Positions 20,831-36,491 of a DNA stretch of 64,000 nucleotides are shown piece after piece. The notes under the pieces are model-generated. The model was not told where the DNA came from. It did no database searches and worked only from the letters and a program-made list of their open reading frames with translations. Source of the stretch: an uncultured delta proteobacterium (GTDB lineage Bacteria > Myxococcota_A > Polyangia > Polyangiales > Polyangiaceae); the NCBI GenBank assembly GCA_963696385.1, contig CAVOKF010000006.1, forward strand, positions 453,387-517,386, given 5' to 3'. The translations under genes were made by a program, and so were the position numbers. Each line of letters starts with the position of its first letter. The stretch's first letter is position 1.

Positions 20831-22609
20831 TCAGGGCCACGGATTGTCGCGTTCGAGACTGACCTTCGGCTTGGTGGTCGGAGAGCGGAAGACGTTCGGG
20901 GCCTCGGTCGCGCTCGGGGCGGCTGCGGCCCCCGATGCATCGACGGAAGCCGTGGGCGGCTCGGTGGCGACGGGCGGGTGCGCGCCCGGTGCCGCGCGCG
21001 TGGCTTCGTGGCGACCCGCGCCCGGCAAGGACGCGGACCCGGCATGAAGGCTCTCGGACCTGCGGGCCACTCCGCTGGCGTTCGGCGGCTCCGCCGATGG
21101 GGTCGCCGCGACGGGCGGAGACACCAGCGTGGCGGCGGCCGTGGCCCCGGGGGCCGAAACGGCAGCGGTCATCGCGCCCGGGGCCGCGGGGCGGGCCGCT
21201 CCGGCCGCGGCCTGGGTTGGGGCGTGAGGTTCCGGCGCGCCCGAATTGGCAGGGTGCGAGGACATGGCGCGCGTGCCCAGGACCGCGATACCCGCGATGG
21301 CCGTCGCGCCCAGCAGCCCCACGGTCGCCATCCGGGCTCGTGATCGAAGCTCGATCCTCCGAGCGTCGGTCGTGCGGGGCACGTCGTCCGTTACGCCGGT
21401 CAGCCCCGTCTTGCTCGACCTTTCGGACCGAGGGGGCTCCACGGCTGCGGCGGCGGCGCCGTCCGAGGCGCCCGGGGGGTCGAGTGTCGACCAATCCTCC
21501 TGGAATGCGGAGTCCGTCCCTCGAGGCGGGTGAACGGTGGGCAGACTCAGCGACGGTGGCGTCGGACGCCCGCTCTCCATGGCTCGGAACTGCGCTTCGA
21601 TCACGTTCCGGACGCGCTTTCGATCCTCGGAAAACACCGACGAGAGCATCGTGCCCAGGTCGCGAAGCGATGCCGACTCGATCTTGGCCAACACGCCGTC
21701 GAGAGCGCCACGCATCTCGGCGGCGGTCTGAAATCGGTCTTCCGGTTTGGGGGCGAGGGCTTTCAGGACGATGTCGTCGATCTCCGCGGGAAACCCCAAC
21801 GCGGCCGCGTCGGTGCGCTCGGGCATTTCTCCGGACGCGACGCGCGTAAATACCGCGGCGTCCGAGAGTCCGGCGGGCCAGCGCCTCCGGCCAGTCAAGG
21901 CCTCCCAGAGCATGACCCCGACCGCGTAGAGGTCCGCCCGAGCGTCAATCTTGTCGCACATGGCTTGCTCGGGTGCCATGTACGTGAGCTTGCCCTTGAT
22001 CACTCCGGTCGCTGTCTGGACCGAGGACGTCGCCGCCTTGGCGATCCCGAAGTCGAGCAACTTCACCTGACCGTCGTACGTGACGAAGATGTTGTGCGGC
22101 GTCACGTCGCGGTGGACGATGTCCAATCTCTTGCCGTCGTAATCTTGTAACTCGTGGGCGTAGCGAAGGCCCTCGAGCACTTCGCTCAGGATCCGCGCGC
22201 GGATCGGGAACGGGAAGGGGACGCCGGTCTTGGTCAGTCGCTGCACAGCCGTGTAGAGCGACACGCCGTCCAGGTACTCCATCGCCATCAAATACTGGCC
22301 GTCGTCGACCCCGACGTCGTACGTCTGCACGATGTTCGGGTGATTGAGGCGCGCACAGAGCCGCGCCTCGTCGAGAAACATCTGAATCAGGTCGGGGTCG
22401 CTCGCGTATTGGGGTCGTATGAGCTTTACGACAGCCAGCTTTCGGAAGCCGGATGACCCCAGGGCGACAGCCAGGTACACAGTGGCCATTCCGCCCTGTC
22501 CCAGCTCCGCGATGAGGCGATATTTGCCCGCGAGATCCACCGATCCTCCGAGGGTTTTTCCGCTCGGCTCCAACAAAGACTCATAGCACTCCGAGGGGGG
22601 CCTAGCCAT
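20831..22609 (-). CDS. Hanks-type Ser/Thr protein kinase with TM helix and Pro/Ala-rich extracytoplasmic tail
   Basis: LGQGGMATVY, HRDVTPHN, DFGIAK and YMAPE motifs, TM MATVGLLGATAIAGIAVL, ends ...LERDNPWP. Confidence 0.95.
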   Translation of the reverse strand: MARPPSECYESLLEPSGKTLGGSVDLAGKYRLIAELGQGGMATVYLAVALGSSGFRKLAVVKLIRPQYASDPDLIQMFLDEARLCARLNHPNIVQTYDVGVDDGQYLMAMEYLDGVSLYTAVQRLTKTGVPFPFPIRARILSEVLEGLRYAHELQDYDGKRLDIVHRDVTPHNIFVTYDGQVKLLDFGIAKAATSSVQTATGVIKGKLTYMAPEQAMCDKIDARADLYAVGVMLWEALTGRRRWPAGLSDAAVFTRVASGEMPERTDAAALGFPAEIDDIVLKALAPKPEDRFQTAAEMRGALDGVLAKIESASLRDLGTMLSSVFSEDRKRVRNVIEAQFRAMESGRPTPPSLSLPTVHPPRGTDSAFQEDWSTLDPPGASDGAAAAAVEPPRSERSSKTGLTGVTDDVPRTTDARRIELRSRARMATVGLLGATAIAGIAVLGTRAMSSHPANSGAPEPHAPTQAAAGAARPAAPGAMTAAVSAPGATAAATLVSPPVAATPSAEPPNASGVARRSESLHAGSASLPGAGRHEATRAAPGAHPPVATEPPTASVDASGAAAAPSATEAPNVFRSPTTKPKVSLERDNPWP

Positions 22610-23036
22610 CGCGTTTTCGAATGCGCCTCGCCCTCGAGCGGCGCCCGAATTTGTGTCGGCTTCTGTCGGCTCTGTCGGCGCGCCCGTCGTTCGGAGTTGT
22701 CTCGGATCGCTCGCGGATCGCTCGCGGGTCTCCGTCGTTTCCTACTCGTGAACCCGTCGCGGGGACTTACCCCCTTATTTCCCTACGCGTTGCCTTCGCG
22801 GCGCATCGGCGCGCACGTGGCAGGCCGCTGCCGAAAGCCGGAGAACGGCGGTGGCTCTGGGCGGAAGTAGGCAATGTTCGTACGGAATGATGCTTAGCCA
22901 AAAACCTTAACTCGGCTTCGAACGAGACCGTTTGACGTTGGAAGTGATTCTGGCGTTTCCGCTCGGTCGAATCGTTTTTGCGTGACAAGGCGATGAGCGC
23001 CACATAGTTTGAAAAACTTCTACGCATAAGGGACGA

Positions 23037-24065
23037 ATGAAAAAGAATCGACTCGCTGTTCGTGGCGCGGTTTTGACCGCGTGTGCAGGACTCCTCGGTG
23101 GCCTCCTCGCGTGCTCGGGTGACGACACCACGACGCCCGCGCCGACCCCGGACGCAGGAGCCGACGGCTCCCACACCGTCGCCGACGCCGGCGATGCGTC
23201 GACCGCCAACGAGGCCTCGACCTCGGACGGTTCATTGGCCGACGGGTCGGTCACGGACGCCGACTCCTCGACCGATGGTTCGACGGCGGAAGCCTCGGCG
23301 ACGGACGGTTCGACCGACGGTTCGTCGCACGATGGTTCGCATGATGGCTCATCGACGGACGGATCGTCGACCGATGGCTCCGTGACGGACGCCTCGTCGA
23401 CGGATGGCTCGTCGACCGATGGCTCTGCGACGGACGGGGAGTCCGATGCGTCGATGGGCAGCGACTCCGGAACGAACGACAGCGGCGATGGCGCGCTGGC
23501 CGATGCCGCCGCGGACGTCATGACCCCGCCACCGGCGCCGGTAGACCTGTGTCCGACGCTGCAGGCCATCTGGGGCAATCTCCCACTCAACCAAAATAGC
23601 AACTGGCCGGCCGAGATTTTGGTCGGCCCCCCGAGCACGCCAGGCGTAACGGGATTTGCGTATCAACAGGAATGTGCTCTCTACTATTTTCCCCCCGCAA
23701 CGATCGATTTTGGAAATTGGGTCAATCAAATGACCGCCTTCGAATATCAAATATTCGGATGCCCCGAGGACGATGCGGGAATCACCTTCGGCCTCATTCC
23801 GGCCGAGCTCCAAGGAACACTGCTCACGACGGCGCAGCTTGCGCTCATCGGAGACACGTTTGTCCAGTCGGTCTCTCAGGCGGTCGCCAATGAGAATGGA
23901 TTGCTCACGCCGGCCCAAAGCGCTGAAATTGCAGCCCAAGTCGCGTACGCAGAGACGACCTGGTCACCCCAAGTCAACTCGTCGGAGAACGATTTTTCGA
24001 ATTGCTCCGAGGCGGGGACCGAGGCCGGGGCCGAGGCCGGAACCGACGCGGGCGGCAGCGACTGA
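23037..24065 (+). CDS. Lipoprotein with (S/T)DG(S/T) low-complexity linker and helical C-terminal domain
   Basis: Lipobox LLAC, DGSST/DGSVT repeats, and a C-terminal domain with a truncated-globin-like pattern. Confidence 0.75.
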   Translation: MKKNRLAVRGAVLTACAGLLGGLLACSGDDTTTPAPTPDAGADGSHTVADAGDASTANEASTSDGSLADGSVTDADSSTDGSTAEASATDGSTDGSSHDGSHDGSSTDGSSTDGSVTDASSTDGSSTDGSATDGESDASMGSDSGTNDSGDGALADAAADVMTPPPAPVDLCPTLQAIWGNLPLNQNSNWPAEILVGPPSTPGVTGFAYQQECALYYFPPATIDFGNWVNQMTAFEYQIFGCPEDDAGITFGLIPAELQGTLLTTAQLALIGDTFVQSVSQAVANENGLLTPAQSAEIAAQVAYAETTWSPQVNSSENDFSNCSEAGTEAGAEAGTDAGGSD

Positions 24066-24071
24066 GCCCCG

Positions 24072-26051
24072 ATGGTCAAGGACGATAGCCGGTCCCGGGC
24101 GAAATACATCATTTCCTTTGCAGCCGCGGCCCTGTGCGGCGGCTGCTCGCTCTTGTTCCATGTCGATGCCGATCAGTGTTCGACGGCGGCCGATTGCGCC
24201 GCGCGCGGGCAGGCCTTCGCCGGCCTCGTTTGCGTGGCGGGGGAGTGCGTGTCTCCGGTGGGCGATGCCGGGTCCTCGGCGACGTCGTCGGCCTTGGAAT
24301 CGGGCGTCGACGCAAGCGCCGAAGCGAGCAGGGCTTCCGACGCCGGTGTCGAGGCGGGCATCGACGGAGCCGCCACCACCCCCGAGGCCGGGTCGGATGC
24401 GGGCGAGGCCCAACCGTGCACGACGTGGACCGATTGCACGCCCGCGAGCACGACGCACGTCGAAGTGGCCTGCAATCCCGACTCCCATACGTGCATTCAG
24501 CTCACGACCGACGAGTGCCCCTATGTGCTCCCCGCCGACATCTACATGGCACCGCAGGGCCAGGCCCCGATTTTCATGGGCGCTTTCGCCACATTTCCGG
24601 CCAACGCGCCGTTCAGTGATGCGACCTATCTCAATTATCAATTGGCGCTGAACGAGTTCCAGACCGCCGGGGGTATCAATGCAGGGTCGGGAGGGGCGCG
24701 CTGGCCCGCCGCGGTCGTCTGCGACGATTCGGCGGATCCGAACGTGATCATGACCCACCTCGTCAACGACGTTCACGTTCCGGCCGTCATCGCGGCGCTG
24801 CCCTCCGCCACGCTCAAGACGACCTTCTCGAACGTCGACCTCACGAACGTGCCCAACGCCCCGACGGTCTTCTTCATCAATCCCTTCGGTGCCGACGGAA
24901 CGCTCACGTCGTTGGACACTCAAGGCATGCTCTGGCACATGCTCGGCCAATCCAGCGACACGGCCCCGGCATACGCCGCATTCTTTCCGCTCGTGGAAGC
25001 GTACGTGCGCAACAACCCGAACAACATTCCAGCGTGGAACCAGTGGAATCTTTCGCCCGCGGCCTCGCTCAAGGACGCCGGCACGGATGCGGGCCCCGTG
25101 CCGATCCGCGTTGCGGGCGTCATTGCGCACGCCACGGTCACCGATCAGCTCGAAGAGGCCGTCGAAAGCGTTTTGACGTTCAATGGCGAGTCGGTCGCGG
25201 CCAACACGGCGGACGGCAACTACCAGGTGTGCGTCCTTCCGGCGTCCTCGCTCAACGGGGCCGACCCGACCAAGGTCGACGTCTCCGCATGCGTCAGCGC
25301 ATTGATGGCGTTTCAACCCAACGTCGTCATCTCGTACGCGAGCGAAGAATTCAGCACGATGTTTCAAACGTACGAAGTCGAAACGCAAGCGCAGTGGCAT
25401 CCGTTCTATTTGCTTGGCCCCTACAATTCCGAGTCGACGACCGTGCTTCAGTGGCTCAACGAAAACCAAGGGGTCGGTTCGGACCGGTTCGCTGGGATCA
25501 CCTTCGCCTCGACCAACGATCCCGCGTCCCTTGGTGTGTTCAACACGTACCAGACCGACTTCTTGGCTGCGGGCAACCCTCAGGCGGCACTCGGTGGCGA
25601 GAATTACTACGACTCGATGTATTTTGCCGTGTACTCGCTCGCCGGCGCCGGACGAGAGGCGCACCCGACGGGCCTCGACCTCGTGCCTGGAATGAGGAAT
25701 CTCGTCGACTTGTCGGGGACGCATCTCGACATGGGGCCGGCGGATATCGGCACAGTCGAAGCCCAAATCGCCCTCACGAATCAGCCCGTGAGTCTGATCG
25801 GCACGCTCGGCCCGCCCGACTTCAACCTGACCACGGGCGCGCGCATCAGTCAGGGCGATGTCTACTGCGCGCAGTTTGCCCCCACGCCCAGCCCCGGTTA
25901 CGCCTGGGTGCGCGACGTGTTGCGGCTGGCCGCTGACGGCGGATCCCCGGACGACGGCGGTGTCGCCGCCGACGCGAGCGTCGCGCCCGACGGCGCCACC
26001 GGCACGGTCGGTACCCTCCAAGGGAGCTTCCCGTGTTTTGGCGGCATGTAG
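24072..26051 (+). CDS. Lipoprotein with Cys-rich N-terminus and periplasmic-binding-protein (LivJ-like) domain
   Basis: Lipobox CGGC, LALNEFQTAGGI, VVCDD, HLVNDVHVPAVI and YYDSMYFAVYSL, a type I PBP pattern. Confidence 0.65.
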   Translation: MVKDDSRSRAKYIISFAAAALCGGCSLLFHVDADQCSTAADCAARGQAFAGLVCVAGECVSPVGDAGSSATSSALESGVDASAEASRASDAGVEAGIDGAATTPEAGSDAGEAQPCTTWTDCTPASTTHVEVACNPDSHTCIQLTTDECPYVLPADIYMAPQGQAPIFMGAFATFPANAPFSDATYLNYQLALNEFQTAGGINAGSGGARWPAAVVCDDSADPNVIMTHLVNDVHVPAVIAALPSATLKTTFSNVDLTNVPNAPTVFFINPFGADGTLTSLDTQGMLWHMLGQSSDTAPAYAAFFPLVEAYVRNNPNNIPAWNQWNLSPAASLKDAGTDAGPVPIRVAGVIAHATVTDQLEEAVESVLTFNGESVAANTADGNYQVCVLPASSLNGADPTKVDVSACVSALMAFQPNVVISYASEEFSTMFQTYEVETQAQWHPFYLLGPYNSESTTVLQWLNENQGVGSDRFAGITFASTNDPASLGVFNTYQTDFLAAGNPQAALGGENYYDSMYFAVYSLAGAGREAHPTGLDLVPGMRNLVDLSGTHLDMGPADIGTVEAQIALTNQPVSLIGTLGPPDFNLTTGARISQGDVYCAQFAPTPSPGYAWVRDVLRLAADGGSPDDGGVAADASVAPDGATGTVGTLQGSFPCFGGM

Positions 26052-27286
26052 GCGCGAGTCCCGGCGCGCGGGCCGGTGTCGTCGCGCTGTGCGGAATGGC
26101 GCTCCCGCAGTGCGGTGGCAGCCCCGAAACCCGTCCCGTCGGCCGTTCGTCTCAGGCCATTCTCGGCGGCACCGTCGTCGATGCGGCGCAGTCGCCGTTT
26201 CTCTACATCGAAGGGCCCGAGGGCGCTTGTACGGGCACGTTGATTGGGCCGGCGCTCGTCGCCACGGCGCGGCACTGCGTCGCGGAATTGAGCGAGGGCA
26301 CGTTTTCTTGCGACGCGTCGGGAAACCTGATCGGCGGGGGGATCGGCGGCCAGATCGGGATTGACAACTCGCCGGGGGCGATTTCGTTCTACCTGTCGTC
26401 CGAGGTCGTTGCGGGACAGCCGCTCGGCCCGCCGCAAGCGGTCGGCCTCCAGATCCTTTCGACCCAGACGCCTACGGTGTGCGCCGACGATCTGGCGTTC
26501 GTCGTGCTGAACCAAGGCATCCCGGGCATCGCGCCGGCGCCGATCCGGCTCGGCGGCACGCAGGTCGGCGAGACCGTCTCGGTCTGGGGCTACGGGCTGA
26601 CCGATCAGCCGGAGGCCCCGACCGAGCTGCGCGTGCGTGACGACGCGCAAATCGTGGGAGTGGGGCCTCCCGTCGCGACCACCACGACCCAGGCTGCGCC
26701 CCTGCGTGCGGTCCGGGTCGGTCCCGGGGCCGTCACGTGCAATGGCGACAGTGGGGGCCCTATGACGTCGGCTGCCACCGGCGCCGTCGTTGCCGTGGTA
26801 TCGCTCGGGGAGCAGGCCTCCACGGGGCCTTTCTGCAGCGACTCGACCGAGTCGGACACCACCGGCCCCCTGCTGGCCGACTACTCCGATCTCGTTCTGG
26901 CCGCCTTCCAAGCTGCCGGACAGACGCCGATTCTCGAAGCCGTGTCGGACGCCGCCTCGTCCGCGCCGGACGGCACGGCGGAGGCCGCACCCTCATCGGA
27001 TTCGGACGCGGATTCGGACGCCGCTCTGGAGTCCGAAGGCGATGCCGCTGACGACGCCGGGCCGTCCCTGCTCGAAGCCGGATCGCTGGTCTCTTCAGAA
27101 GCCGGTTCCTCCGTGGGGCCGTCCCCGGTCGGGCCGTCGGCGACCGACTCGACCGGTCCCTTCGCGTACGCGGTAAGCGGGGGTTCTTGTTCGATGGGAT
27201 CCAATGTTGGCGCGCGTTCGATTCCGCGCGGCCTGATGGCGTTGGCGGTTGGGGTGGCGGCCGTCGCCCGGAGGCGTAGACGATGA
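26033..27286 (+). CDS. Trypsin-like (S1) serine protease with MYXO-CTERM-like sorting tail
   Basis: QAILGG mature start, catalytic motifs ATARHC, DDLAFV and GDSGGP, and C-terminal GGSCSM...hydrophobic...RRRRR. Start uncertain. Confidence 0.88.
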   Translation: MFWRHVGASPGARAGVVALCGMALPQCGGSPETRPVGRSSQAILGGTVVDAAQSPFLYIEGPEGACTGTLIGPALVATARHCVAELSEGTFSCDASGNLIGGGIGGQIGIDNSPGAISFYLSSEVVAGQPLGPPQAVGLQILSTQTPTVCADDLAFVVLNQGIPGIAPAPIRLGGTQVGETVSVWGYGLTDQPEAPTELRVRDDAQIVGVGPPVATTTTQAAPLRAVRVGPGAVTCNGDSGGPMTSAATGAVVAVVSLGEQASTGPFCSDSTESDTTGPLLADYSDLVLAAFQAAGQTPILEAVSDAASSAPDGTAEAAPSSDSDADSDAALESEGDAADDAGPSLLEAGSLVSSEAGSSVGPSPVGPSATDSTGPFAYAVSGGSCSMGSNVGARSIPRGLMALAVGVAAVARRRRR

Positions 27287-28284
27287 TTCGATCGGCGTTT
27301 GGACATCCTATCCGGGTCTTCTCGGCGCTTTGCGTCGCGACGATGTTCGTCGGACCGAGGAGCGCGGGTGCCGCTCCACCCGCCGGCGGCGCCCCGCCCT
27401 CGCCGCCCCCGTCGTCATCGGCCCACGTGGCGACGCCCCCACCGGGCACCGAGAGCGGAGAAGAGGCGTCGGTGCGTTTCAAGCGCGGCTTGCAGCTCTT
27501 TGACGAAGGCGACTACACGTTGGCGCTGGTCGAGTTCGAGCGGGCCTACCAACTCGCCCCCAACTACCGTGCGCTCTACAACATCGCTCTGGTCAACATG
27601 CAACTCGGCCGGTACGCCGACGCCGTCCGCACGCTCGATCAATACTTGCACGACGGTGCCGCGGCGATCCCGGCCGATCGCCAAAAGGAAGTCGCCAAGT
27701 CGCTCGCGGAGCTCAAGCTCCGAACCGCGACGGTCGACGTCTCGACGAACGTGCCCGGTGCCGAGGTCACGTTGGACGGCAAACCCATCGAGGCCGGTTC
27801 CCTTCAGAAGCCGTTGCTCATCGACGCGGGGGAACACACGCTGCGCGCCACGGCAGCCGGATACCAGCCCGGGTATCGGACCGTCACGCTCGCCGGCGCG
27901 GACCGGGTCCGTGTCCGCCTGGATCTCGTCTCGCTGGCGCCGGTGGCCGTCGAACCGGTCGAGGAGCGCGGGCGCACCGTGTTCTGGCCCGGTTTTGCCG
28001 TCGCCGGAGGGTTTGCGGCGGGCGCCGTCGCGAGCGGCATCGTGATGCTGGTGGCGAAATCGCACTACGACTCGGTCGAAAACCAGGTCGGATCGAGCTT
28101 GGCCGCGCGGACGAGCGCCGCGAACGCGGTGAATTCGGCGGGGCTGGTGGCCGACGTCCTGACGGGACTGACGGTCGTGACCGGAGGCGTCTCTTTGGTC
28201 TTGTCGCTCCGCGTCGATCATTCTGCCAAGACGCCCCCGGCCGGCACCGGGTCGCAACAGGTCGTGCTTTCCGGTACATTTTGA
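27283..28284 (+). CDS. TPR + PEGA domain protein with C-terminal hydrophobic hairpin
   Basis: TPR (FKRGLQLFDEGDYTLALVEFERAY...LYNIA), PEGA (TNVPGAEVTLDG...GEHTLRA), two hydrophobic segments, ends VVLSGTF. Confidence 0.85.
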   Translation: MIRSAFGHPIRVFSALCVATMFVGPRSAGAAPPAGGAPPSPPPSSSAHVATPPPGTESGEEASVRFKRGLQLFDEGDYTLALVEFERAYQLAPNYRALYNIALVNMQLGRYADAVRTLDQYLHDGAAAIPADRQKEVAKSLAELKLRTATVDVSTNVPGAEVTLDGKPIEAGSLQKPLLIDAGEHTLRATAAGYQPGYRTVTLAGADRVRVRLDLVSLAPVAVEPVEERGRTVFWPGFAVAGGFAAGAVASGIVMLVAKSHYDSVENQVGSSLAARTSAANAVNSAGLVADVLTGLTVVTGGVSLVLSLRVDHSAKTPPAGTGSQQVVLSGTF

Positions 28285-29702
28285 CCGAGGACACGATGCC
28301 TGGAGGCGAACGCACCACCGCGCTCCCCCGAGCACCGGCGCCTTTTCCATCGCCCGCCACGCGCACCCTTCCCGGGCTGCAGTGGACCGAGGGCGGCCAG
28401 CCTCGAATGGCGACCGTGGAGCGTCGGTGCGTACTGGGATCGGCGCCGCACTGCGACGTCATCATCGTCGACCCGACGGTCTCGCGCGTTCACGCCGAGA
28501 TCGAGCCGCGCGACGAAGGGATTCGGATGCGAGATCTGAACAGCCGCAACGGCACGTTCGTCGAAGGCGTGCGGGTCGAGTCGGCATGCGTGCTGCACGG
28601 GTTCACGATTCGGGTCGGCTCGACCGACGTCGTCGTCAATTATCAAAATGCCCAGCAACAGGCCGTCGAAAGCTGGCCTTCGGAGCGCTTCGGCCCGCTC
28701 GTCGGGCGAAGCCCTTCGATGCGCGAGCTCTTTGCCACGCTTGCGCGTTTGGCCCCGCTCGAGTGCTCGATCATGATCCAGGGGGAGACGGGCACCGGCA
28801 AGGAGCTCGTCGCTCGCGCGATCCACCTCGCGTCGGTGCGATCGTCCGGTCCGTTCGTCGTCGTCGACTGTGCGGCGCTGTCCGAGACCTTGATCGAGGC
28901 GGAGCTCTTCGGACACGTGAAGGGGTCCTTCACCGGCGCGCACCAGACCCGTGTCGGCGCCATCGAGGCGGCCGACGGCGGCACGGTATTCTTGGACGAG
29001 ATCGGCGAGCTGCCCATCGGCATGCAGCCGAAGCTTCTGCGCACCCTCGAGTCGTCGACCGTGCGGCGCATCGGGGAGTCGAAACATCGGCCGGTCAACG
29101 TCCGTTTCGTGACGGCGACCCATCGCGATCTGCTGTCGATGGTCAACCGGGGTGAGTTCCGGGAAGACCTGTACTTTCGTCTTGCGGTCATTCCCGTGCG
29201 CGTTCCGGCGCTGCGCGAGCGGACCGAAGACATCGATCTGCTGCTCCATCATTTTGGCGGGGGCGATCTCGCGTGGCTCACCCCCAAAGTGCTTCGCGGG
29301 CTCGAAAATCGTCCCTGGCGGGGTAACGTCCGAGAATTGCGTAACTTCGTCGAACGGGCCCGCGCGATCGGTCCGGCCGATGCGATGAACCTCCTGCAGG
29401 ACGCCGTGGAAGAGCGCGAGCCCGTCACGGCCGTCCTGCCGCGTCCTCCGGACTCGGCGCAGATGCGCGCCGCTGCCGTGGTCGTCGCACCTCCGGCGAG
29501 CGTCCCCCCGTACAAGGGACCGGACGCCCCGTCCTTCACCCAGCCCTTCCGGGCGTTCCGAGAGCAATGGATCGGCTACGGCGAGCGAGCGTTCCTGCGG
29601 GCGCTGCTCGAACAGCATCACAACAACGTCGCCGCCGCCGCCAAAGAGGCGGGGATCGATCGGACGCACATGTACCGACTGATCCGAAAGCACGGGCTGT
29701 GA
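28281..29702 (+). CDS. FHA-domain sigma54-dependent transcriptional activator (bEBP) with Fis HTH
   Basis: FHA (VSRVHAEI, DLNSRNGT), GETGTGKE, GSFTGA, FLDEIGE, WRGNVREL, and C-terminal NVAAAAKEAGIDRTHMYRL. Confidence 0.93.
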   Translation: MTEDTMPGGERTTALPRAPAPFPSPATRTLPGLQWTEGGQPRMATVERRCVLGSAPHCDVIIVDPTVSRVHAEIEPRDEGIRMRDLNSRNGTFVEGVRVESACVLHGFTIRVGSTDVVVNYQNAQQQAVESWPSERFGPLVGRSPSMRELFATLARLAPLECSIMIQGETGTGKELVARAIHLASVRSSGPFVVVDCAALSETLIEAELFGHVKGSFTGAHQTRVGAIEAADGGTVFLDEIGELPIGMQPKLLRTLESSTVRRIGESKHRPVNVRFVTATHRDLLSMVNRGEFREDLYFRLAVIPVRVPALRERTEDIDLLLHHFGGGDLAWLTPKVLRGLENRPWRGNVRELRNFVERARAIGPADAMNLLQDAVEEREPVTAVLPRPPDSAQMRAAAVVVAPPASVPPYKGPDAPSFTQPFRAFREQWIGYGERAFLRALLEQHHNNVAAAAKEAGIDRTHMYRLIRKHGL

Positions 29703-29919
29703 CCGCGCAACGTGCGCCGGTTCGATCGACGCCGCGCCGATCGAGTGGCCTCGGGCGCCACATGGAGTGCGCTCCGCGCCACAAACTATCCGTGGCGACC
29801 CCGCGACGTGCCCTCGGAAGCCGCCCCTCGACATGTCGGTATCGTCACGACGCCGGCGATATGCCGCGATTTGGGCGGATCCGAGAATGCGAGGGAGCGA
29901 TTTCACTCTCCGCGCATCG

Positions 29920-29935
29920 TGGCCTGTCCCTTGCT
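29920..29935 (+). promoter_or_regulatory. Putative sigma54 (-24/-12) promoter
   Basis: TGGCCTG-TCCC-TTGCT with exact spacing, ~44 nt before the GTG start at 29979 (GGAGG RBS), just downstream of a bEBP gene. Confidence 0.7.
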
Positions 29936-29978
29936 CACTACCCTGTCGCGTCAGGAAACAAACGCGGAGGGAATCAAC

Positions 29979-31424
29979 GTGAGAACAAGATATGCGTCGT
30001 TCGTGGTCCTAGCATCGGTGGCGTCGCTCGCAGGATGCGTAGCGCCCACATCCTCGTCGGAAGAAGACGTAGGTCAGACTTCGGAGGCCGTCAGCACGGG
30101 TGGCTTGACGGCTTCGATCACCATCACCAGTAGCTCCAGCCAAAACTACTCGGCCAGCATGACCATCGCCAACGGCGGTGACGAGCCGGCGAGCAACTGG
30201 CAAGTCGCCTTGAACTTGGGCAGTGCCACGATGCAGGGCAATCCGTCCAACTCCGAGATGCTCAATGTCGGCGGCCAAACGGTCATCGGTCCCGGTGCGT
30301 CGAGCACGACGCTGCAGCCCGGCAAGTCCGTGACGGTCACCTGGAACGCGCAGTTCCCGTCCGGCTCCACGACCTGGAAGCCCACGGTCAAGTCGGTCGA
30401 CGGCGTCGCCTCCGGCACGCCTTACAACCAATCGGCAGGCTGGCCGTCCGGCAGCGTCGACATGATCGCGCGGGCCGTGGCGACGGGTGCCCTGAACCTG
30501 GCGATCGCATACGAAAATAACAAGTTGCCCAATACCGGCGACGCGAACTACCCCTACTACGACAACCTGATTTGGGCCTCGACCTCGTTCGTCGTGTCGG
30601 GCGGCCAGATGGCCTTCGACCCGAACGTCCCGGGCTACGCCTTCATCCCGCCGCAAGCGGTCGCCGCCCTCGAGGCCATGCAGCAAAGCCCCGAAGTCGC
30701 GAGCTACTTGACCGCGGGCCTCACGAGTTGCTTCTTGCAGGGCGCCGACAACGTGTACAGCTTCAAAGCCGGCGTTCTCAAGGGCTTCGTCTATCCCGGT
30801 TCGTCGAAGTCGGTTTCGATCATCGGTGGCCGGCCGACCGGCGTCATCCAGAACTACAATCCCCTGGAAGTCACCGACAGCTTTACGACGAGCGGTGTCT
30901 CGTCGAACGGGGCCGAGGCGATCACCGTGACGTTGACGGGGACGACGGTGTATCCGGACTTGTGGTTCGGCATTCTGACCGCCAGCGGGTTGCAACTCTT
31001 CCCGAATACCCAGGCGGTTTACAACAAGTACACGGGCGGCAACAGCGTGGCGTGCTCGCCGTTCAACGGTCCCGGCGGCACGGCCAATCCGTACTTCGCC
31101 ATGACGCTCAACGGCTCATCGGTCCCCGCGCGCTTCCAGGGCGTGGGCCAAGAGTGCCAGGGCGGCGGTTGCTCGTCGACGATGACGCTCGATCCTGACC
31201 CGTATTCGGGCTCCGGGGCGTACTACAACACGGCCGGTCTGGTGGGACCGCAGCCAAACCCGTTCGCTCTCAACCCCTGCGACCTCTTGGCGAACCCGGC
31301 GCACCAGGGTCAGTGGTCGACTTCGACCAACGCGAGCGGCGCAACGGTATGGGGAACCTTCTCGACCCCCGTGGTCTTCAAGGGCCAGGTGGTCGATTAC
31401 TCCTGGTCGGAAGTGGCCGATTGA
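29979..31424 (+). CDS. Lipoprotein with CBM2-like cellulose-binding domain and unrecognised C-terminal domain
   Basis: Lipobox LAGC and a CBM2-like segment (YSASMTIANGGDEPASNWQVAL...TLQPGKSVT). The C-terminal ~300 aa were not recognised. Confidence 0.7.
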   Translation: MRTRYASFVVLASVASLAGCVAPTSSSEEDVGQTSEAVSTGGLTASITITSSSSQNYSASMTIANGGDEPASNWQVALNLGSATMQGNPSNSEMLNVGGQTVIGPGASSTTLQPGKSVTVTWNAQFPSGSTTWKPTVKSVDGVASGTPYNQSAGWPSGSVDMIARAVATGALNLAIAYENNKLPNTGDANYPYYDNLIWASTSFVVSGGQMAFDPNVPGYAFIPPQAVAALEAMQQSPEVASYLTAGLTSCFLQGADNVYSFKAGVLKGFVYPGSSKSVSIIGGRPTGVIQNYNPLEVTDSFTTSGVSSNGAEAITVTLTGTTVYPDLWFGILTASGLQLFPNTQAVYNKYTGGNSVACSPFNGPGGTANPYFAMTLNGSSVPARFQGVGQECQGGGCSSTMTLDPDPYSGSGAYYNTAGLVGPQPNPFALNPCDLLANPAHQGQWSTSTNASGATVWGTFSTPVVFKGQVVDYSWSEVAD

Positions 31425-31506: not shown

Positions 31507-31555
31507 AAAAGTCAATCGACCGTGCCACACTCTTCGGCACGGTCGATTGGCTTTT
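31507..31555. terminator. Bidirectional intrinsic terminator
   Basis: 20-bp inverted repeat (AAAAGTCAATCGACCGTGCC / GGCACGGTCGATTGGCTTTT, 19/20 complementary) with A and T tracts, between convergent genes. Confidence 0.85.
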
Positions 31556-31634: not shown

Positions 31635-32531
31635 TCAGAGCTGCTTGGCCGAGAACGTGTCGCACGCCGAAATCGAACCCTGGTCGAATCCGCGACGAAA
31701 CCAGCGCACGCGCTCTTGCGACGAGCCGTGCGTCCACGACTCCGGGCTCACGGTGCCGGTCGCCATCTTCTGAAGCCGATCGTCGCCGACCGCCGCGGCG
31801 GCCCCGAGTGCCGAGTCGATGTCGCCGCTTTCGAGCAGGTGCCGCTGATCGGTCGACTTGGCCCAGATCCCCGCGAAGCAGTCGGCTTGCAACTCGAGAC
31901 GGACGGAAGCGCCCGTCGCTCCGGCGGTGTGCCTTAGCGATTCGACCCGTTCGCTGATGCCGAGAAGCTTCTGGACGTGATGTCCAATCTCGTGCGCGAT
32001 GACGTACGCTTGCGCGAACTGCCCGCGCGCTCCGAGCTTGCTGGACAGTTCGCGGAAAAACCCGAGATCGATGTACACGTGCTCGTCGCTCGGGCAGTAA
32101 AACGGTCCGGTGGCCGCCTCGCCTTCGCCGCAGCCGGTCCGGGTTTCATCCGTGTAAAGCACGAGCTTCGCGTGCCGGTACGGCCGCTGCAAACGACGGG
32201 TGAACGTGTCGGACCAGCTCGACTGCACGTCGTCGAGCACGAACGACACGAAGTGAACCTCCGGCGTTTCCGCACGGGGGTCCGCCGATTGCGGAAGCGT
32301 GCTGCCGTGGGCGTGCATCCCCGCTGAAACGCCGCCGAGAAATCCCCGGCCGAGGTAGAAGAGCAGGGCGCCGCCGAGGACGACCCAGCCGAACCGGCTG
32401 CGAAGAAGCCACGGCAGCAAGAAGAGAAGGCCCCCGATGGATCCGCCGCCCTGCATGGGCTCTTCCCCGCGGCGATCGATGAGGTCCGGGCTTTCGTGCT
32501 CGTCGTCCCAGCGCATGGCGATAGGAGACAT
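31635..32531 (-). CDS. Neutral zinc metallopeptidase (YpfJ family)
   Basis: GPFYCP, AQAYVIAHEIGHHVQ, ELQADCFAG and WTHGSS motifs. Confidence 0.92.
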   Translation of the reverse strand: MSPIAMRWDDEHESPDLIDRRGEEPMQGGGSIGGLLFLLPWLLRSRFGWVVLGGALLFYLGRGFLGGVSAGMHAHGSTLPQSADPRAETPEVHFVSFVLDDVQSSWSDTFTRRLQRPYRHAKLVLYTDETRTGCGEGEAATGPFYCPSDEHVYIDLGFFRELSSKLGARGQFAQAYVIAHEIGHHVQKLLGISERVESLRHTAGATGASVRLELQADCFAGIWAKSTDQRHLLESGDIDSALGAAAAVGDDRLQKMATGTVSPESWTHGSSQERVRWFRRGFDQGSISACDTFSAKQL

Positions 32532-32567
32532 CTACGCGCGCGTGCGCCGGTTGGCCACCGCGGACCC

Positions 32568-33218
32568 CTATTTGGGCGTCAAACTGTCGATGAGCGCGTC
32601 GAAGGACGGTCGCGCGCTCTGCACGTCGGCCGACGGTCCGATGAGCCGGAAGAAGTACGCGGTGCCCCCCGCCGGAACAATCGCGGCGAGCAGCGTCCAG
32701 TCCGGACGCGGAGTCACGGGTGCTCCGGGCAACATTCCGCTCGAGCGGTACGTTCCACTGACTTCGACCACCGTGACGTCGAGACCGCGGACGTGCTTGA
32801 CCGTCTGGCTCTCATGGGGCCCGTCGAACTGGCCCATCCAGCGTTGGATGTTCGCGTCCGGCGTTCCGCCGGCGCGCGAGACGCTCACGTCGAGCGGTTC
32901 GCTGCCGGAAGGCCCCGGGATACGATAGCTCGCAAGGCGCATGCGGTTTGGATTGCGCACGGCTTGCCACCCGGTTGGCGCCGTCCACGTGACGGCCGGG
33001 GCCTCTGCGTTTTCCGCACCCATCATGGCGCGCGACGACAGCGGTGCCGTCGGACCGGGCCCCGGGGCGACGGCCGAGTTCGTGGCCTCGGGCGTGGCGG
33101 AAGACGGGCGCTCGAGGTCCGGCGGTTTCTTGCCGCTTCGCAACATCGCGAACGCGCCGGCGGCGACCACGACAACGACTACGGCCACGGCGAACGGAGC
33201 AAGTCGCTTCGTCTGCAT
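32568..33218 (-). CDS. Membrane-anchored conserved hypothetical protein
   Basis: N-terminal TM followed by WTAPTGW...MRLASY...GGTPDANIQRWMGQF. Start placed at ATG 33218. Confidence 0.65.
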   Translation of the reverse strand: MQTKRLAPFAVAVVVVVVAAGAFAMLRSGKKPPDLERPSSATPEATNSAVAPGPGPTAPLSSRAMMGAENAEAPAVTWTAPTGWQAVRNPNRMRLASYRIPGPSGSEPLDVSVSRAGGTPDANIQRWMGQFDGPHESQTVKHVRGLDVTVVEVSGTYRSSGMLPGAPVTPRPDWTLLAAIVPAGGTAYFFRLIGPSADVQSARPSFDALIDSLTPK

Positions 33219-33455
33219 CAGACCTCCGACCACTCGGTCCTCGTACCGCCATGCGGGCGTCGCTGTCCAGTGACCTCTCGTGCCTCGCTCGTCGTGTGCG
33301 CCGTCGTCGAGCGGACCCAGGCAAAGGAGCGTCAATCGCGGACTGGTGCTTTAGGGGTGCCTTCCGCCTGCACCGTTGCCGGCGGGCGAAACGGTTGCGC
33401 CCTTATCGTTCCATGGACAAAAGTGAGGGGTGGGGTACTAGTCTCACGAACCGTG

Positions 33456-34901
33456 ATGACGGATGAGACGCGCGTCGAAGACTCGAAGTACGATCTCGGT
33501 GCCCCTTCGCCCGCCATCTACGCGGGCGAACTGCCTTGGGGGTACGGCGTAGACCGCATCACGGCCATCGTACGCGATCCGGAATCGGCCTACCTCTATT
33601 GGGAGGTGACCGACGCCGGCCTCGCGTCCGCGCGGCAGCGTCTCGGGCCCTCCGGCAACGACGGCTGGTGCAACTTGCGCGTGTACGACACGACCGGCAA
33701 GGTCTTCGACGGCACCAACGCGAACGACTACTTCGACATCCGCGTCGATCGCGCGGATCGCGAGTACTTCGTGATGATTCGGCGACCGACCTCGACCATG
33801 CATGTCGAGATCGGAGTCAAGACACAAGAAGGGTATTTTCAGCCCATCGCGCGGTCGGGCGGAGCCGATTTCCCGCGCAATGCGCCCTCACCCAACACGA
33901 ATCTCGAGTGGCTCACGGTGACCTCCGACTACGCGCCGCCCGCGGTCGCACCCTTTCAGTCGCGCTACGCCGGGCCCGAACCCGCGTTGCCGGGTCGCGA
34001 GGGAGCCGGCTACGTCGACGTCTGGCGTGCGGCGTATGCGCCCTCCATTCCGGGGGCGGCGACTCCGCTCGAGAACGCCGCGTCGAGCGGCGCGGGCGTC
34101 CATCGGACCTACGATCGGAGCGCGCACATCGAGCGCTGGTGGCATCTGGAGGAATGGCGATCGGAGTGGCGTGGCGGCTTGCGTTTCGTGCGCCGCGTCG
34201 GCGCGGTCGACGACACGACCGTGTCGTCGTGGCACGAGGGGCCGTTCGCCGTGGATCTGCTCGACCGGGAGCGCATCGCCATCGAGCTGCTCGGCGAGGT
34301 GCCAATCCGACTGCTTTCGCAAGGCATGGAATTTACCGTGTACGGTCCCTGGAAGATGACGGTGCGAAGCTTCGACGCGGAGCCCCACCGGCGCGTGATT
34401 TCGACGTGGGCGATGCGCTGGGTGCGCGCGACGACACCCCTCATCGAACGCTGGGGACTCGGAATCGAGCGGCAGATCCTCAGCGGCTACGAGCGCGAGA
34501 TCGTCGTGCACGGCGCCTCCGAGCGGCACGCTCTGCTCGAGCGCGGCGCGAGCGAACTGTGGCGCATCGGAGCCTCGGAGCGCATGTGGCTCGGTGCGAG
34601 CGAGTGGGCTGCCGCCGGCGCCTCGGAGACGCTCTTTCTCGGCGGATCGCAGTGGGCGTTTGCCGGGGCGAGCGCATTCGCTCAATTGGGCGCGAGCGAG
34701 CGAACCGGCGCGAGCGAGGTGATCGGTGCGAGCGAGCGGTGGCGCGCGGCAGGCGGCGCGAGCCAATTCGGAGGCGCGAGCGAGACGCAAGGCGCGAGCG
34801 AGTGGTGGTACGCGGCGGGCGGCGCGAGTCGGTTGGGGGGCGCGAGCGAGCGGTCGTTCGGTACGGCGGAGCGTTGGGGCGGGCGGCTGAAGGAGGATTG
34901 A
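33456..34901 (+). CDS. DUF4912 domain protein with C-terminal GASE repeats
   Basis: ELPWGYGVDRITAIVRDPESAYLYWEV and LRVYD motifs of DUF4912. It lies directly upstream of a GH57 gene. Confidence 0.82.
   Translation: MTDETRVEDSKYDLGAPSPAIYAGELPWGYGVDRITAIVRDPESAYLYWEVTDAGLASARQRLGPSGNDGWCNLRVYDTTGKVFDGTNANDYFDIRVDRADREYFVMIRRPTSTMHVEIGVKTQEGYFQPIARSGGADFPRNAPSPNTNLEWLTVTSDYAPPAVAPFQSRYAGPEPALPGREGAGYVDVWRAAYAPSIPGAATPLENAASSGAGVHRTYDRSAHIERWWHLEEWRSEWRGGLRFVRRVGAVDDTTVSSWHEGPFAVDLLDRERIAIELLGEVPIRLLSQGMEFTVYGPWKMTVRSFDAEPHRRVISTWAMRWVRATTPLIERWGLGIERQILSGYEREIVVHGASERHALLERGASELWRIGASERMWLGASEWAAAGASETLFLGGSQWAFAGASAFAQLGASERTGASEVIGASERWRAAGGASQFGGASETQGASEWWYAAGGASRLGGASERSFGTAERWGGRLKED
34512..34850 (+). 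repeat. Coding repeat: 15 G-[AG]-S units (11 exact GASE) spaced 6-9 aa apart
   Basis: Counted directly in the translation HGASE...GGASERSFG. Confidence 0.9.
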
Positions 34902-34903
34902 AC

Positions 34904-36491
34904 GTGGCGCACGGATATCTGGCGATCGTCCTTCACGCGCATTTGCCGTTCGTTCGGCATCCGGAAGCGCCGTCGTACATGGAAGAGGAGTGGTTCTTCG
35001 AGGCCATCACCGAGACGTACATCCCGCTCTTGCTCGCGTTCGAGAACCTGTCGCGCGACGACATCGACTTTCGGATCACGCTCTCGTTCAGCTCGTCTTT
35101 GCTTTCGATGATGACCGACGACCTGCTCAAGGAGCGGTATGCGGGCAAGCTCGACCACCTGATCGAGCTCGCCGACAAGGAGGTCGACCGCACGTGGCGC
35201 GAAGACCGCACCTTCCACGAGCTTGCGAAGATGTACCGGCATCGCTTCCACGAGACGCGCAACTGTTGGCGGCGCTACGACGGCGATCTCGATTCGGGCC
35301 TACCGTGCGCTGCAGGACGCCGGTCGTGTCGAGATCATCACGTGCACGGCCACGCACCCGTTCTTTCCGCTTCTCGACCGCAACTGGGCCGCGTTTCGCG
35401 CGCAGATTTATACGGCCGCGAGCCTGTACGAGCGTCTCTTCGGGCGCCGTTCGCAGGGCATGTGGCTCGGCGAATGCGGTTACGTCCCCGGTGTGGACGA
35501 GCTCTTGCGCGAGGAAGGCATCCGCTTCTTCTTCGTCGACACCCACGGCGTCCTGTTCGCCGATCCGCGGCCGCTCTACGGCGTGCACGCGCCGATCTAT
35601 TGCCGATCGGGAGTGGCCGCGTTCGGTCGCGACATCGAGAGCTCCAAGCAAGTGTGGAGTGCTCAAGAGGGCTACCCGGGCGACCCGGCCTACCGCGACT
35701 TCTACCGGGACGTCGGCTTCGATCTTCCGCACGACTACATCGGGCCGTACATCCACCCCGAAGGGATCCGGACGTTCACCGGGATCAAGTATTACGCGGT
35801 GACCCATCGCTCGGCGGATCAAAAGCGTCCGTACGACCCCCATCAGGCGTATTTGCGCGCCGCGGAGCACGCGGGCAATTTCATGCACAATCGCGAGCGC
35901 CAGGTCGAGCATCTGCGCGCCAACATGGATCGGCGTCCGATCGTGGTCGCGCCGTACGACGCGGAGCTCTTCGGGCACTGGTGGTACGAGGGCCCCATGT
36001 TTTTGGAGCTGTTGTTCCGCAAGCTCCAATACGATCAGGGCGCCGTTGCGCCGATCACGCCGAGCGGATACCTGCACGAGTATCCCACCAACCAAGTGGC
36101 GACGCCGTGCTGGTCGTCATGGGGCGAGAAGGGCTACGGCGACTACTGGTGCAACGGCACGAACGCTTGGGTTTACCGGCATCTGCACAAGATCGCCGAG
36201 CGCATGGTGGAGCTCGCGCACAGGTTTCCGAGCGCCGAGGGCGTGCAGCGGGTTGCCCTCGATCAGGCGGCGCGAGAGGTCATGCTCGCCCAAGCGAGCG
36301 ACTGGGCCTTCATCATGAAGACCGGCACGACCGTGCCGTACGCGACCAAGCGCACGGTCGACCACGTGACGCGCTTCACGCGCATCTACGACCAGCTTCT
36401 GAGCGGATCGGTCGACGAGCGATGGCTCGCCGAAGTGGCGAGCCGAGACAACCTGTTTCCCGACGTCGACTATCGCGTCTATGGGACCTGA
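34904..36491 (+). pseudogene. GH57 1,4-alpha-glucan branching enzyme (DUF1957) with one frameshift at ~35291 (real or sequencing error)
   Basis: HAHLPFVRHP and EEWFFEAITETYIPLL lie in one frame. After one extra base (CTC-G-ATT-CGG-GCC-TAC), ATHPFFPLL, WLGECGY, PYDAELFGHWWYEG and AQASDWAF continue in the next frame. Confidence 0.85.

Follow-up and report, generated by a model that had tools for sequence, protein, structure and literature searches.

A seven-gene cassette in a 64,000-nucleotide (nt) stretch of DNA from an uncultured soil member of the Polyangiaceae appears, with slightly better than even probability, to encode a split receptor-kinase circuit that feeds a sigma54 switch; this is the best-supported of the models that we considered. 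The stretch, which we call the window, belongs to a 6.9-Mb assembly in 8 contigs (G000). Its cassette (Table 1) comprises a gene for a membrane-bound Hanks-type Ser/Thr kinase; a divergently oriented operon encoding, in order, lipoprotein 1, lipoprotein 2, an S1-family serine protease, a membrane protein with TPR and PEGA domains (TPR-PEGA) and an FHA-domain bacterial enhancer-binding protein (FHA-bEBP); and a gene for a lipoprotein with a family 2 carbohydrate-binding module (CBM2). The seven genes and their motifs had been listed by a model that saw only the letters of the window (the original prediction), and checks of open reading frames (ORFs), Pfam matches and motifs confirmed all of them. 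The evidence throughout is computational, with membrane topology taken from hydropathy.

In the favoured model, the kinase would have no folded ectodomain, only a disordered Ala/Pro tail ending in PKVxLERDNPW, and this ending would dock, on the periplasmic side, in the concave TPR groove of an inner-membrane-anchored TPR-PEGA protein. Motif conservation, co-occurrence and complex prediction suggest that TPR-PEGA serves as a detachable ectodomain or co-receptor of the kinase. An envelope cue would alter kinase activity; our guess is that this cue could be a small ligand bound by lipoprotein 2, which has a predicted LivJ fold, or peptides set free by the surface S1 protease. To judge from a conserved three-gene linkage, the kinase would act on the FHA-bEBP, which is expected to be translationally coupled to TPR-PEGA. 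The activator, as phylogenetic footprints suggest, would assemble on tandem GCCACR sites and open the sigma54 promoter in front of the CBM2-lipoprotein gene, which is monocistronic. The output would be a lipoprotein at the cell surface with two domains, one of them binding an insoluble polysaccharide.

We assign the kinase to the Hanks type on the basis of its Pkinase domain and its catalytic motifs VVK (with the catalytic Lys), HRD, DFG and APE, which begin at residues 60, 166, 186 and 212 and are invariant in 7/7 orthologues. The kinase domain (residues 30–294) is followed by a transmembrane segment (425–447) and an Ala/Pro-rich tail of 134 residues (448–581; 30% Ala, 16% Pro). Residues 425–447 are the only hydrophobic segment and lie after a run of Arg, and we therefore infer that the kinase domain is cytoplasmic and the tail extracytoplasmic. 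In alignments of orthologues (7 rows each for the kinase and TPR-PEGA), the sequence P-[KR]-V-x-L-E-R-D-N-P-W closes all seven kinases. The tails that precede it cannot be aligned, and the part upstream, as far as the membrane, aligns well. The motif occurs once in G000.

The TPR-PEGA protein has an N-terminal signal peptide and two C-terminal hydrophobic helices, and is most likely anchored in the inner membrane. The kinase tail therefore need not span the periplasm, as the original prediction had supposed; the other half of that proposal, contact between the kinase C-terminus and the TPR domain, gained support from complex prediction. We modelled TPR-PEGA residues 55–228 with kinase residues 553–592, alongside three controls. 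The pair scored an ipSAE of 0.67 (0.66, 0.67 and 0.72 in separate runs), versus 0.02 for the best of the three controls; of solved complexes, 116 of 157 attain that mark, as do 2 of 215 mismatched pairs. The runs had 47% or more of their contacts in common. The predicted interface places kinase residues 582–592 against TPR residues 59–107, with the tightest contacts between TPR N100, Y99, L103, V104, L70 and F73 and kinase L585 and E586, and between TPR F66, K67 and R96 and kinase N589, P590 and W591. The TPR domain is nearly invariant among the seven orthologues, and among family members N100 is invariant (30/30) and Y99 is kept in 26/30. The model supports binding of the tail to the TPR groove but does not prove it, and we consider it fairly probable that the tail peptide (PKVSLERDNPWP) binds there.

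The pairing of kinase and TPR-PEGA extends well beyond the window. A TPR-PEGA profile matched 184 of 201 genomes of the order (E ≤ 1e-10; the tally includes the unpublished genome G147), often in many copies, and 1,240 clusters in a library of 1.84 billion proteins (E ≤ 1e-30), most of the proteins being 310–380 residues long. Outside the order the family is rare (15 of 121 sampled genomes in all, 3 at E ≤ 1e-20), and searches elsewhere in the phylum sample mostly did not recover the close subfamily. A Hanks kinase is present at 22 of the 30 best TPR-PEGA loci of the order, which we inspected with 1.5-kb flanks, and mostly lies directly upstream on the same strand. Among the kinase ORFs whose stop codon falls within the locus, 20 of 21 have [DN]-P-[WYF] inside the last 10 residues, typically as L-D-x-x-D-P-W, I-D-x-x-D-P-Y or L-D-x-x-N-P-F; as a background, 10 of the 106 kinase ORFs in G000 have it within the last 9 residues. 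The paralogues in G000 that are closest to the window's TPR-PEGA protein, three in number, either adjoin motif-bearing kinases (with the endings HNPYGPQ and VNPYAQ) or lie at a distance of 10 kb from two such kinases. The type of tail varies with TPR residues 66, 94, 97 and 103, a co-variation consistent with docking. Finally, one metagenome protein (P0166, 656 aa) is a natural fusion in which a kinase domain is followed by a transmembrane segment, TPR-PEGA and two further transmembrane segments, the signal anchor of TPR-PEGA serving as the membrane span; it is the only real fusion among 11 long proteins scanned. Long frames over TPR-PEGA matches that had looked like kinase fusions were rejected as overlapping frames of adjacent genes.

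A broader and more doubtful possibility is that, across a large class of myxobacterial Hanks kinases, the kinase itself has only a disordered tail ending in an address peptide, with a TPR-PEGA protein as its detachable ectodomain and each TPR groove reading its own address, and that in this cassette the LivJ-fold lipoprotein delivers the ligand signal to that complex. If so, a peptide-groove code would keep dozens of parallel kinase pathways apart in one cell, comparable to the specificity residues of histidine kinase/response regulator pairs.

The original prediction made conserved synteny in relatives a test of the system, and the cassette does recur across the genus, with rearrangements. 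We compared all seven proteins by tblastn with ten fetched related loci. Orthologous TPR-PEGA proteins (54–91% identity) are encoded in 11 genus genomes, and the FHA-bEBP gene directly follows in all nine genomes with sufficient contig. An orthologous kinase (51–89% identity) is encoded within the cluster in 10 of the 11, homologues of lipoprotein 1 (26–57% identity) occupy the equivalent place at 8 of these ten loci, and the CBM2 lipoprotein lies inside the cluster at each of the eight loci for which the downstream region is available. Strong matches to lipoprotein 2 (E ≤ 5e-93) were found in 13 of 25 genus genomes, G000 included; the matches in 16 further genomes of the order were no more than weak. 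Of all 41 genomes, 19 had a match at E ≤ 0.001, a tally that includes the unpublished G010. In the window, the last four operon genes overlap one another (26033/26051, 19 nt; 27283/27286, 4 nt; 28281/28284, 4 nt). In G009 the kinase gene is followed by TPR-PEGA, bEBP, lipoprotein 1, lipoprotein 2 and protease genes, with the CBM2-lipoprotein gene 3 kb further on, and in G014 the kinase gene comes after the CBM2-lipoprotein gene. A compact divergent unit of three genes, encoding the kinase, TPR-PEGA and the bEBP, is found on one contig in G004 and G006; the genes for lipoprotein 2, the protease and a pair of CBM2 lipoproteins (in G004 also lipoprotein 1) stand alone on another. Gene order thus resolves the cassette into two modules, a regulatory trio (kinase, TPR-PEGA and FHA-bEBP) and a surface module that comprises both lipoproteins, the S1 protease and the CBM2-lipoprotein genes.

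Three further kinase/TPR-PEGA/FHA-bEBP trios are encoded in G000 (C5:316335-320658, C7:1440844-1445211 and C4:61504-66554); the C7 trio consists of consecutive genes with 1-nt gaps. Beside these three trios, no convincing pair of a sigma54 box and a lipoprotein gene behind it was found. FHA-bEBPs account for 10 of the 46 bEBPs of G000, and 4 of these 10 are encoded beside a TPR-PEGA gene with a kinase, compared with 4 of the 36 other bEBPs; by this genomic measure, the trio is a repeated design in G000.

The activator is assigned to the sigma54-dependent bEBPs on its AAA+ domain (PF00158), Walker A (GETGTGKE) and Walker B (FLDEIG) motifs and GSFTGA loop, which reads GAFTGA or GSFTGA among orthologues. 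It is 75–79% identical to five orthologues. Its putative C-terminal Fis-type helix-turn-helix (HTH) scores 20.4 bits with HTH_8, under the cut-off of 22, and the segment is nearly invariant in 6/6 sequences. G000 encodes RpoN from one rpoN gene. We put the chance that the kinase controls this activator by phosphorylation at about even.

Comparative evidence supported the claim that a sigma54 promoter precedes the CBM2-lipoprotein gene. The start of this gene is most likely the GTG at 29979 rather than position 29712, which leaves a spacer of 276 nt after the FHA-bEBP gene. The pattern [TC]GGC-N7-[TCG]TGC[AT] lies 40–75 nt upstream of the start in 12/12 genes of the CBM2-lipoprotein family; all 12 starts have a ribosome-binding site (RBS) and a signal peptide with a lipobox, and the proteins are only 29–47% identical. 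The pattern has a background of 1,436 occurrences per 13.9 million strand-bases in G000, and is kept at the four CBM2-lipoprotein genes of G004 and G006, where the regulators are encoded elsewhere. With GG and GC ten bases apart, a position upstream of a gene and conservation in relatives, we assign the window box to the sigma54 promoters. A candidate enhancer, or upstream activating sequence (UAS), lies 123–175 nt upstream of it; likewise, in 8 of the 12 family promoters GCCAC[AG] occurs two or three times at intervals of about 21 nt, 120–200 nt upstream of the box. When G000 was searched for the tandem pattern GCCAC[AG]-N13-18-NCCAC together with the box, the window instance was the only one of five combinations that precedes a lipoprotein gene, and the regulon of the activator in G000 may be the CBM2-lipoprotein gene alone. 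Overall, we regard it as very probable that the activator drives the CBM2-lipoprotein promoter. Separately, a strong sigma54-like box (CGGCACGCNCGTTGCA, 7 of 8 scored positions) is present in two relatives, at L015:2768 and on the reverse strand of L019 at 4247, outside the mapped genes.

The predicted product has an N-terminal CBM2 fold. The window copy scores 17.4–17.8 bits with PF00553 (CBM_2), under the cut-off of 24; however, structural comparison confirmed the fold in an AlphaFold2 (AF2) model (pLDDT 77.6; VIA Z 11.6 and root-mean-square deviation 2.4 Å over 101 residues aligned to 3ndy_E), the family profile matches 1exg at E 1.1e-6, and 38 of 60 members of the family reach E ≤ 0.05 with PF00553. 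The C-terminal domain had no match by Foldseek, VIA or PDB profile and no Pfam match in the 60 members, and an atlas look-up gave no usable hit. In one family member (P0120, 614 aa), ricin-type lectin domains stand in place of the CBM2 module, suggesting that the C-terminal domain works on glycans with exchangeable binding modules.

Several observations weigh against the proposed circuit. For docking, solved complexes of TPR domains with C-terminal peptides exist, and part of the complex score may reflect likeness; in addition, the pLDDT of the partner was only 51–52 and the alignments were shallow (7 rows). For pairing, distant TPR-PEGA paralogues in G000 adjoin kinases with other C-termini, and six motif-bearing G000 kinases have no TPR-PEGA gene within 600 nt. 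The co-variation of tail and TPR follows subfamily lines, and the window pair breaks it at residue 66, so that it is not independent evidence. One genome (G024, 97% complete) keeps the rest of the cassette, with its best kinase match, at 40% identity, on the level of a paralogue. In the FHA domain, Ser54 (Ala in one orthologue) occupies the position of the GR-motif Arg in 6/6 orthologues. As for the promoter, the single box is not above chance (14 such matches in the window versus 8.06 expected, with at least 14 in 5 of 100 shuffles), the tandem UAS pattern is absent from 4 of the 12 promoters, and UAS and box are found together 5 times across G000, no more often than chance (4.7 expected). 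Lastly, lipoproteins 1 and 2 follow the target rather than the regulators in G004 and G006, and their operon has no correctly spaced box scoring at least 6/8 within 300 nt upstream at any locus. In the window, the spacer between this operon and the kinase gene has neither a correctly spaced sigma54-like box at that threshold nor a sigma70-like match.

Three of the G000 kinases beside distant TPR-PEGA paralogues (C7:810678-812192, C7:1364457-1366064 and C7:79820-81436) end in DPFSTLKPM, DPLSALRPK and NPLLIELQ. This recurring other ending may represent a second class of tail peptide.

The FHA domain bears on the link between kinase and activator. Phosphate binding by FHA domains involves the GR-motif Arg, Ser-x-x-His and Asn-Gly. 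The FHA fold claimed in the original prediction is clear by profile (PF00498), and the domain can be aligned to those of Rv1747 and GarA; SRxH (SRVH) and NG are kept, but Ser54 faces the Arg of IGR in Rv1747 and of AGR in GarA. Lacking the canonical Arg, the domain may read phospho-Thr weakly or not at all, and such reading is therefore less certain than had been assumed. The missing Arg is also what one would expect if the kinase/TPR-PEGA pair and the bEBP shared regulation rather than a pathway, the degenerate FHA domain acting as a phospho-independent regulatory or oligomerisation domain, the activator sensing something else and the kinase having other substrates. Consistent with this, G024 retains the TPR-PEGA, bEBP and target genes without an orthologous kinase, and with 106 kinase ORFs in G000, kinases are frequent neighbours. 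By contrast, the trio stays together despite relocation (G004 and G006) or rearrangement (G009 and G014), it has three paralogous counterparts in G000, and TPR-PEGA genes adjoin FHA-bEBP genes in the excess noted above. We consider such separation of the pathways quite improbable.

A further scheme keeps kinase and activator in one pathway and gives TPR-PEGA, instead of a co-receptor's part, a role resembling that of an anti-sigma factor: the cytoplasmic loop between its two hydrophobic helices, or the juxtamembrane segment of the kinase, would hold the FHA-bEBP at the membrane, the tail would only report the state of the envelope, and phosphorylation would release or capture the activator. 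The 4-nt overlap of the TPR-PEGA and bEBP genes in the window, and their adjacency in 9/9 genomes, suggest matched protein amounts, and the loop is Ser/Thr-rich and about 27 residues long. However, no Thr of the loop is invariant, and most kinase/TPR-PEGA pairs across the order have no adjacent bEBP gene (AAA54 at 4 of the 30 loci), indicating that the pair has a function independent of the activator. This scheme is, in our judgement, unlikely.

The surface module bears on where a signal might enter the favoured circuit. Lipoprotein 2 had no Pfam match, and its sequence profile gave 0 hits to the PDB at E ≤ 1. By contrast, the AF2 model (pLDDT 77.4) matched type-1 periplasmic binding proteins in a Foldseek search of the PDB (4gnr at E 1.6e-13 and TMt 0.72, 4q6b at TMt 0.77, and 3ip5; TMt range 0.72–0.77), and on this model we assign the protein the two-lobe Venus-flytrap fold of LivJ/LivK. 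Residues G24, C25 and S26 are invariant in 11/11 sequences, and the family has 48 members. In one metagenome protein (P0048, 926 aa), a Pkinase domain is fused to an extracytoplasmic part that is a relative of lipoprotein 2, with 26% identity across 342 aligned columns, Cys-rich module included. The original prediction had cast both lipoproteins as receptors, a role that our comparison did not establish: where the two modules are separated (G004 and G006), they go with the target genes rather than with the regulators. Lipoproteins 1 and 2 may be effectors rather than sensors, and we hold it doubtful that lipoprotein 2 is a sensor.

It is tentatively possible that the cluster is chiefly a surface module for degradation or nutrient uptake, in which both lipoproteins of the operon, together with the protease, would be co-effectors of the CBM2 lipoprotein rather than receptors, with signal entry at another place. 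The genes that stand together in G004 and G006, with the regulators elsewhere, and the presence of the CBM2 lipoprotein in the cluster at every locus that could be read downstream, agree with this. However, the fusion in P0048 argues for sensory use of the lipoprotein 2 fold, the surface genes are co-transcribed with TPR-PEGA and bEBP in seven genomes, and a Pfam scan of 13 proteins revealed no ABC transporter genes in the cluster to serve the binding protein.

The protease is classed as an S1 serine protease on its trypsin profile and intact His/Asp/Ser triad (motifs ARHC, DDLA and GDSGG at residues 79, 152 and 238). Its last 54 residues match positions 2–34 of the 34-position MYXO-CTERM profile TIGR03901 at 19.7 bits, against a cut-off of 20. 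A conserved Cys follows its N-terminal hydrophobic stretch (window 26033-26130; ALPQC here, and AAC, SSC, PGC or AGC in relatives), and the protein may be lipid-anchored at the N-terminus besides having the MYXO-CTERM-like tail. For the C-terminal domain of lipoprotein 1, an atlas look-up gave no usable hit.

RNA evidence comes from metatranscriptome contigs of three runs (X1–X3) from one study, which lie on the locus at 99–100% likeness. They cover the target gene in full and the genes for the kinase, lipoprotein 1, lipoprotein 2 and the activator in part. The contigs over the target gene show no differences from it (for example, 29959-30371 in run X2). RNA libraries can hold DNA, the contigs indicate neither level nor transcript ends, and uncovered bins are uninformative. 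Word depth peaks over 29850-31345, although no ranking of genes can be drawn from contig depth. Contigs begin at 29959 (X2) and 29985 (X3), and an adapter-like loose end lies at 30001 (X1), all 13–55 nt past the expected start; given their common origin, these ends are at most a weak hint of the transcription start of the target gene.

That Hanks kinases might signal to FHA-type sigma54 activators is a long-standing idea. Jelsbak, Givskov and Kaiser are said to have described FHA-domain sigma54 enhancer-binding proteins of Myxococcus xanthus in PNAS (102:3010) in 2005 and to have proposed a link to the many Hanks kinases that myxobacteria have. As in those proteins, the FHA domain here stands in place of a receiver domain ahead of the AAA+ sigma54 activator; unlike them, this one comes with a specific kinase, membrane partner, target promoter and candidate enhancer that can be named from comparative evidence, its FHA domain has no GR arginine, and its hosts are uncultured Polyangiaceae.

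Other systems share parts of the layout. Co-chaperone TPR domains clamp the EEVD C-terminal tails of Hsp70 and Hsp90; the predicted complex likewise has a short C-terminal peptide on a flexible tail in a concave groove with a conserved Asn (here N100). In contrast to those clamps, it would be periplasmic and bacterial, its partner is a kinase, the motif is [LI]-[DE]-x-x-[DN]-P-[WYF] and the TPR domain has only about two repeats. The sensor kinases of LuxP-LuxQ, TorT-TorS and ChvE-VirA read periplasmic binding proteins, and here too a Venus-flytrap binding protein without its own transporter is encoded beside a membrane kinase; however, those are histidine kinases with folded periplasmic domains, whereas the binding protein here is a lipoprotein of a narrow family whose contact with the kinase is hypothetical. 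In TonB cell-surface signalling, which links a TonB-dependent transducer, an anti-sigma factor and an extracytoplasmic function (ECF) sigma factor, an envelope cue is similarly relayed to a dedicated alternative-sigma promoter next to its regulators. The sigma factor here would instead be RpoN with an ATPase activator, and no ECF sigma factor, anti-sigma factor or TonB-dependent transducer was found among the 13 Pfam-scanned proteins, so that the analogy drawn in the original prediction finds none of its defining parts in the cluster.

The threonine-phosphorylation pathway of the H1 type VI secretion system (T6SS) of Pseudomonas aeruginosa (TagQ/TagR/TagST, PpkA and Fha1; PMC10482370) offers another parallel. 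In that pathway, envelope proteins including a lipoprotein control, from the periplasm, a membrane Hanks kinase that signals to an FHA protein (PMC10482370). It differs in that its output is post-translational assembly of a secretion machine rather than sigma54 transcription, the periplasmic domain of PpkA is folded and the accessory proteins have other folds. The Pfam scan revealed no T6SS domains among the cluster proteins, which were not directly compared with the Tag proteins. Searches of the literature, limited to the coverage of the library searched, found no published description of a kinase/TPR-PEGA partnership or of tail-peptide docking; the TPR-PEGA partner family and the docking are thus the parts that we did not find in print.

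Myxobacteria have about a hundred Hanks kinases per genome, most of them without a known input, partner or output, and cognate sets of kinase and FHA activator have so far been hard to name. In this cassette, comparative evidence names all the parts: kinase, membrane partner with docking peptide and groove, activator, candidate enhancer, promoter and single target. The TPR-PEGA family is large and unstudied, and given its number of clusters and its presence in most genomes of the order, a result on one pair would inform many pathways.

Table 1. Features of the cassette and its parts (positions in the window)
Feature	Position	Strand	Basis or remarks
Membrane Hanks-type Ser/Thr kinase, 592 aa	20831-22609	-	Pkinase PF00069 E 6.2e-39, 134.4 bits (cut-off 31.7)
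Kinase C-terminal short linear motif, residues 582-592, KVSLERDNPWP	20834-20866	-	predicted docking peptide
Divergent intergenic spacer, kinase gene/lipoprotein operon, 427 nt	22610-23036	.	gene coordinates
Lipoprotein 1	23037-24065	+	lipobox LLAC; Asp/Gly/Ser-rich linker; C-terminal domain of ~170 aa without known family
Lipoprotein 2	24072-26051	+	lipobox-like GGC|S; two small Cys-rich modules, then predicted type-1 periplasmic-binding-protein fold
S1 (trypsin-family) serine protease	26033-27286	+	Trypsin PF00089 E 3.4e-13, 50.4 bits (cut-off 20.6)
MYXO-CTERM-like sorting tail of S1 protease	27179-27283	+	TIGR03901
TPR-PEGA membrane protein	27283-28284	+	TPR_2 34.8 bits (cut-off 27); PEGA 29.1 bits (cut-off 20.8)
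TPR of TPR-PEGA	27466-27657	+	Pfam
PEGA of TPR-PEGA	27727-27927	+	Pfam
Hydrophobic helices of TPR-PEGA	27988-28059, 28141-28215	+	hydropathy
FHA-sigma54 enhancer-binding protein (FHA-bEBP)	28281-29702	+	FHA PF00498 57.7 bits (cut-off 20.7); Sigma54_activat E 2.8e-66
FHA domain	28431-28619	+	Pfam
AAA+ domain	28698-29198	+	Pfam
Putative Fis-type HTH	29583-29690	+	Pfam
Candidate enhancer (UAS)	29745-29797	+	GCCACA repeats at 29757 and 29778 (21 nt apart), flanking GTGGC half-sites
Sigma54 -24/-12 promoter box TGGCCTGTCCCTTGCT	29920-29935	+	two mismatches to TGGCACGNNNNTTGCW
CBM2 lipoprotein, putative sigma54-driven target	29979-31424	+	start GTG 29979; RBS GGAGGG 29966-29971; lipobox LAGC
N-terminal CBM2 domain, residues 34-144	30078-30410	+	fold and profile
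C-terminal domain of CBM2 lipoprotein, ~320 aa, without known fold	30456-31421	+	conserved in family
Hairpin with 15-bp stem, between target gene and convergent Zn-peptidase gene	31513-31549	.	likely terminator

Three neighbours lie downstream of the cassette in the window. The first, on the minus strand (31635-32531), encodes a putative neutral Zn metallopeptidase (PF04228, E 2.7e-92). It is followed on the plus strand by a gene for a DUF4912 protein (32496-34901) and by a long ORF (33536-37102) with a weak match to GH57.

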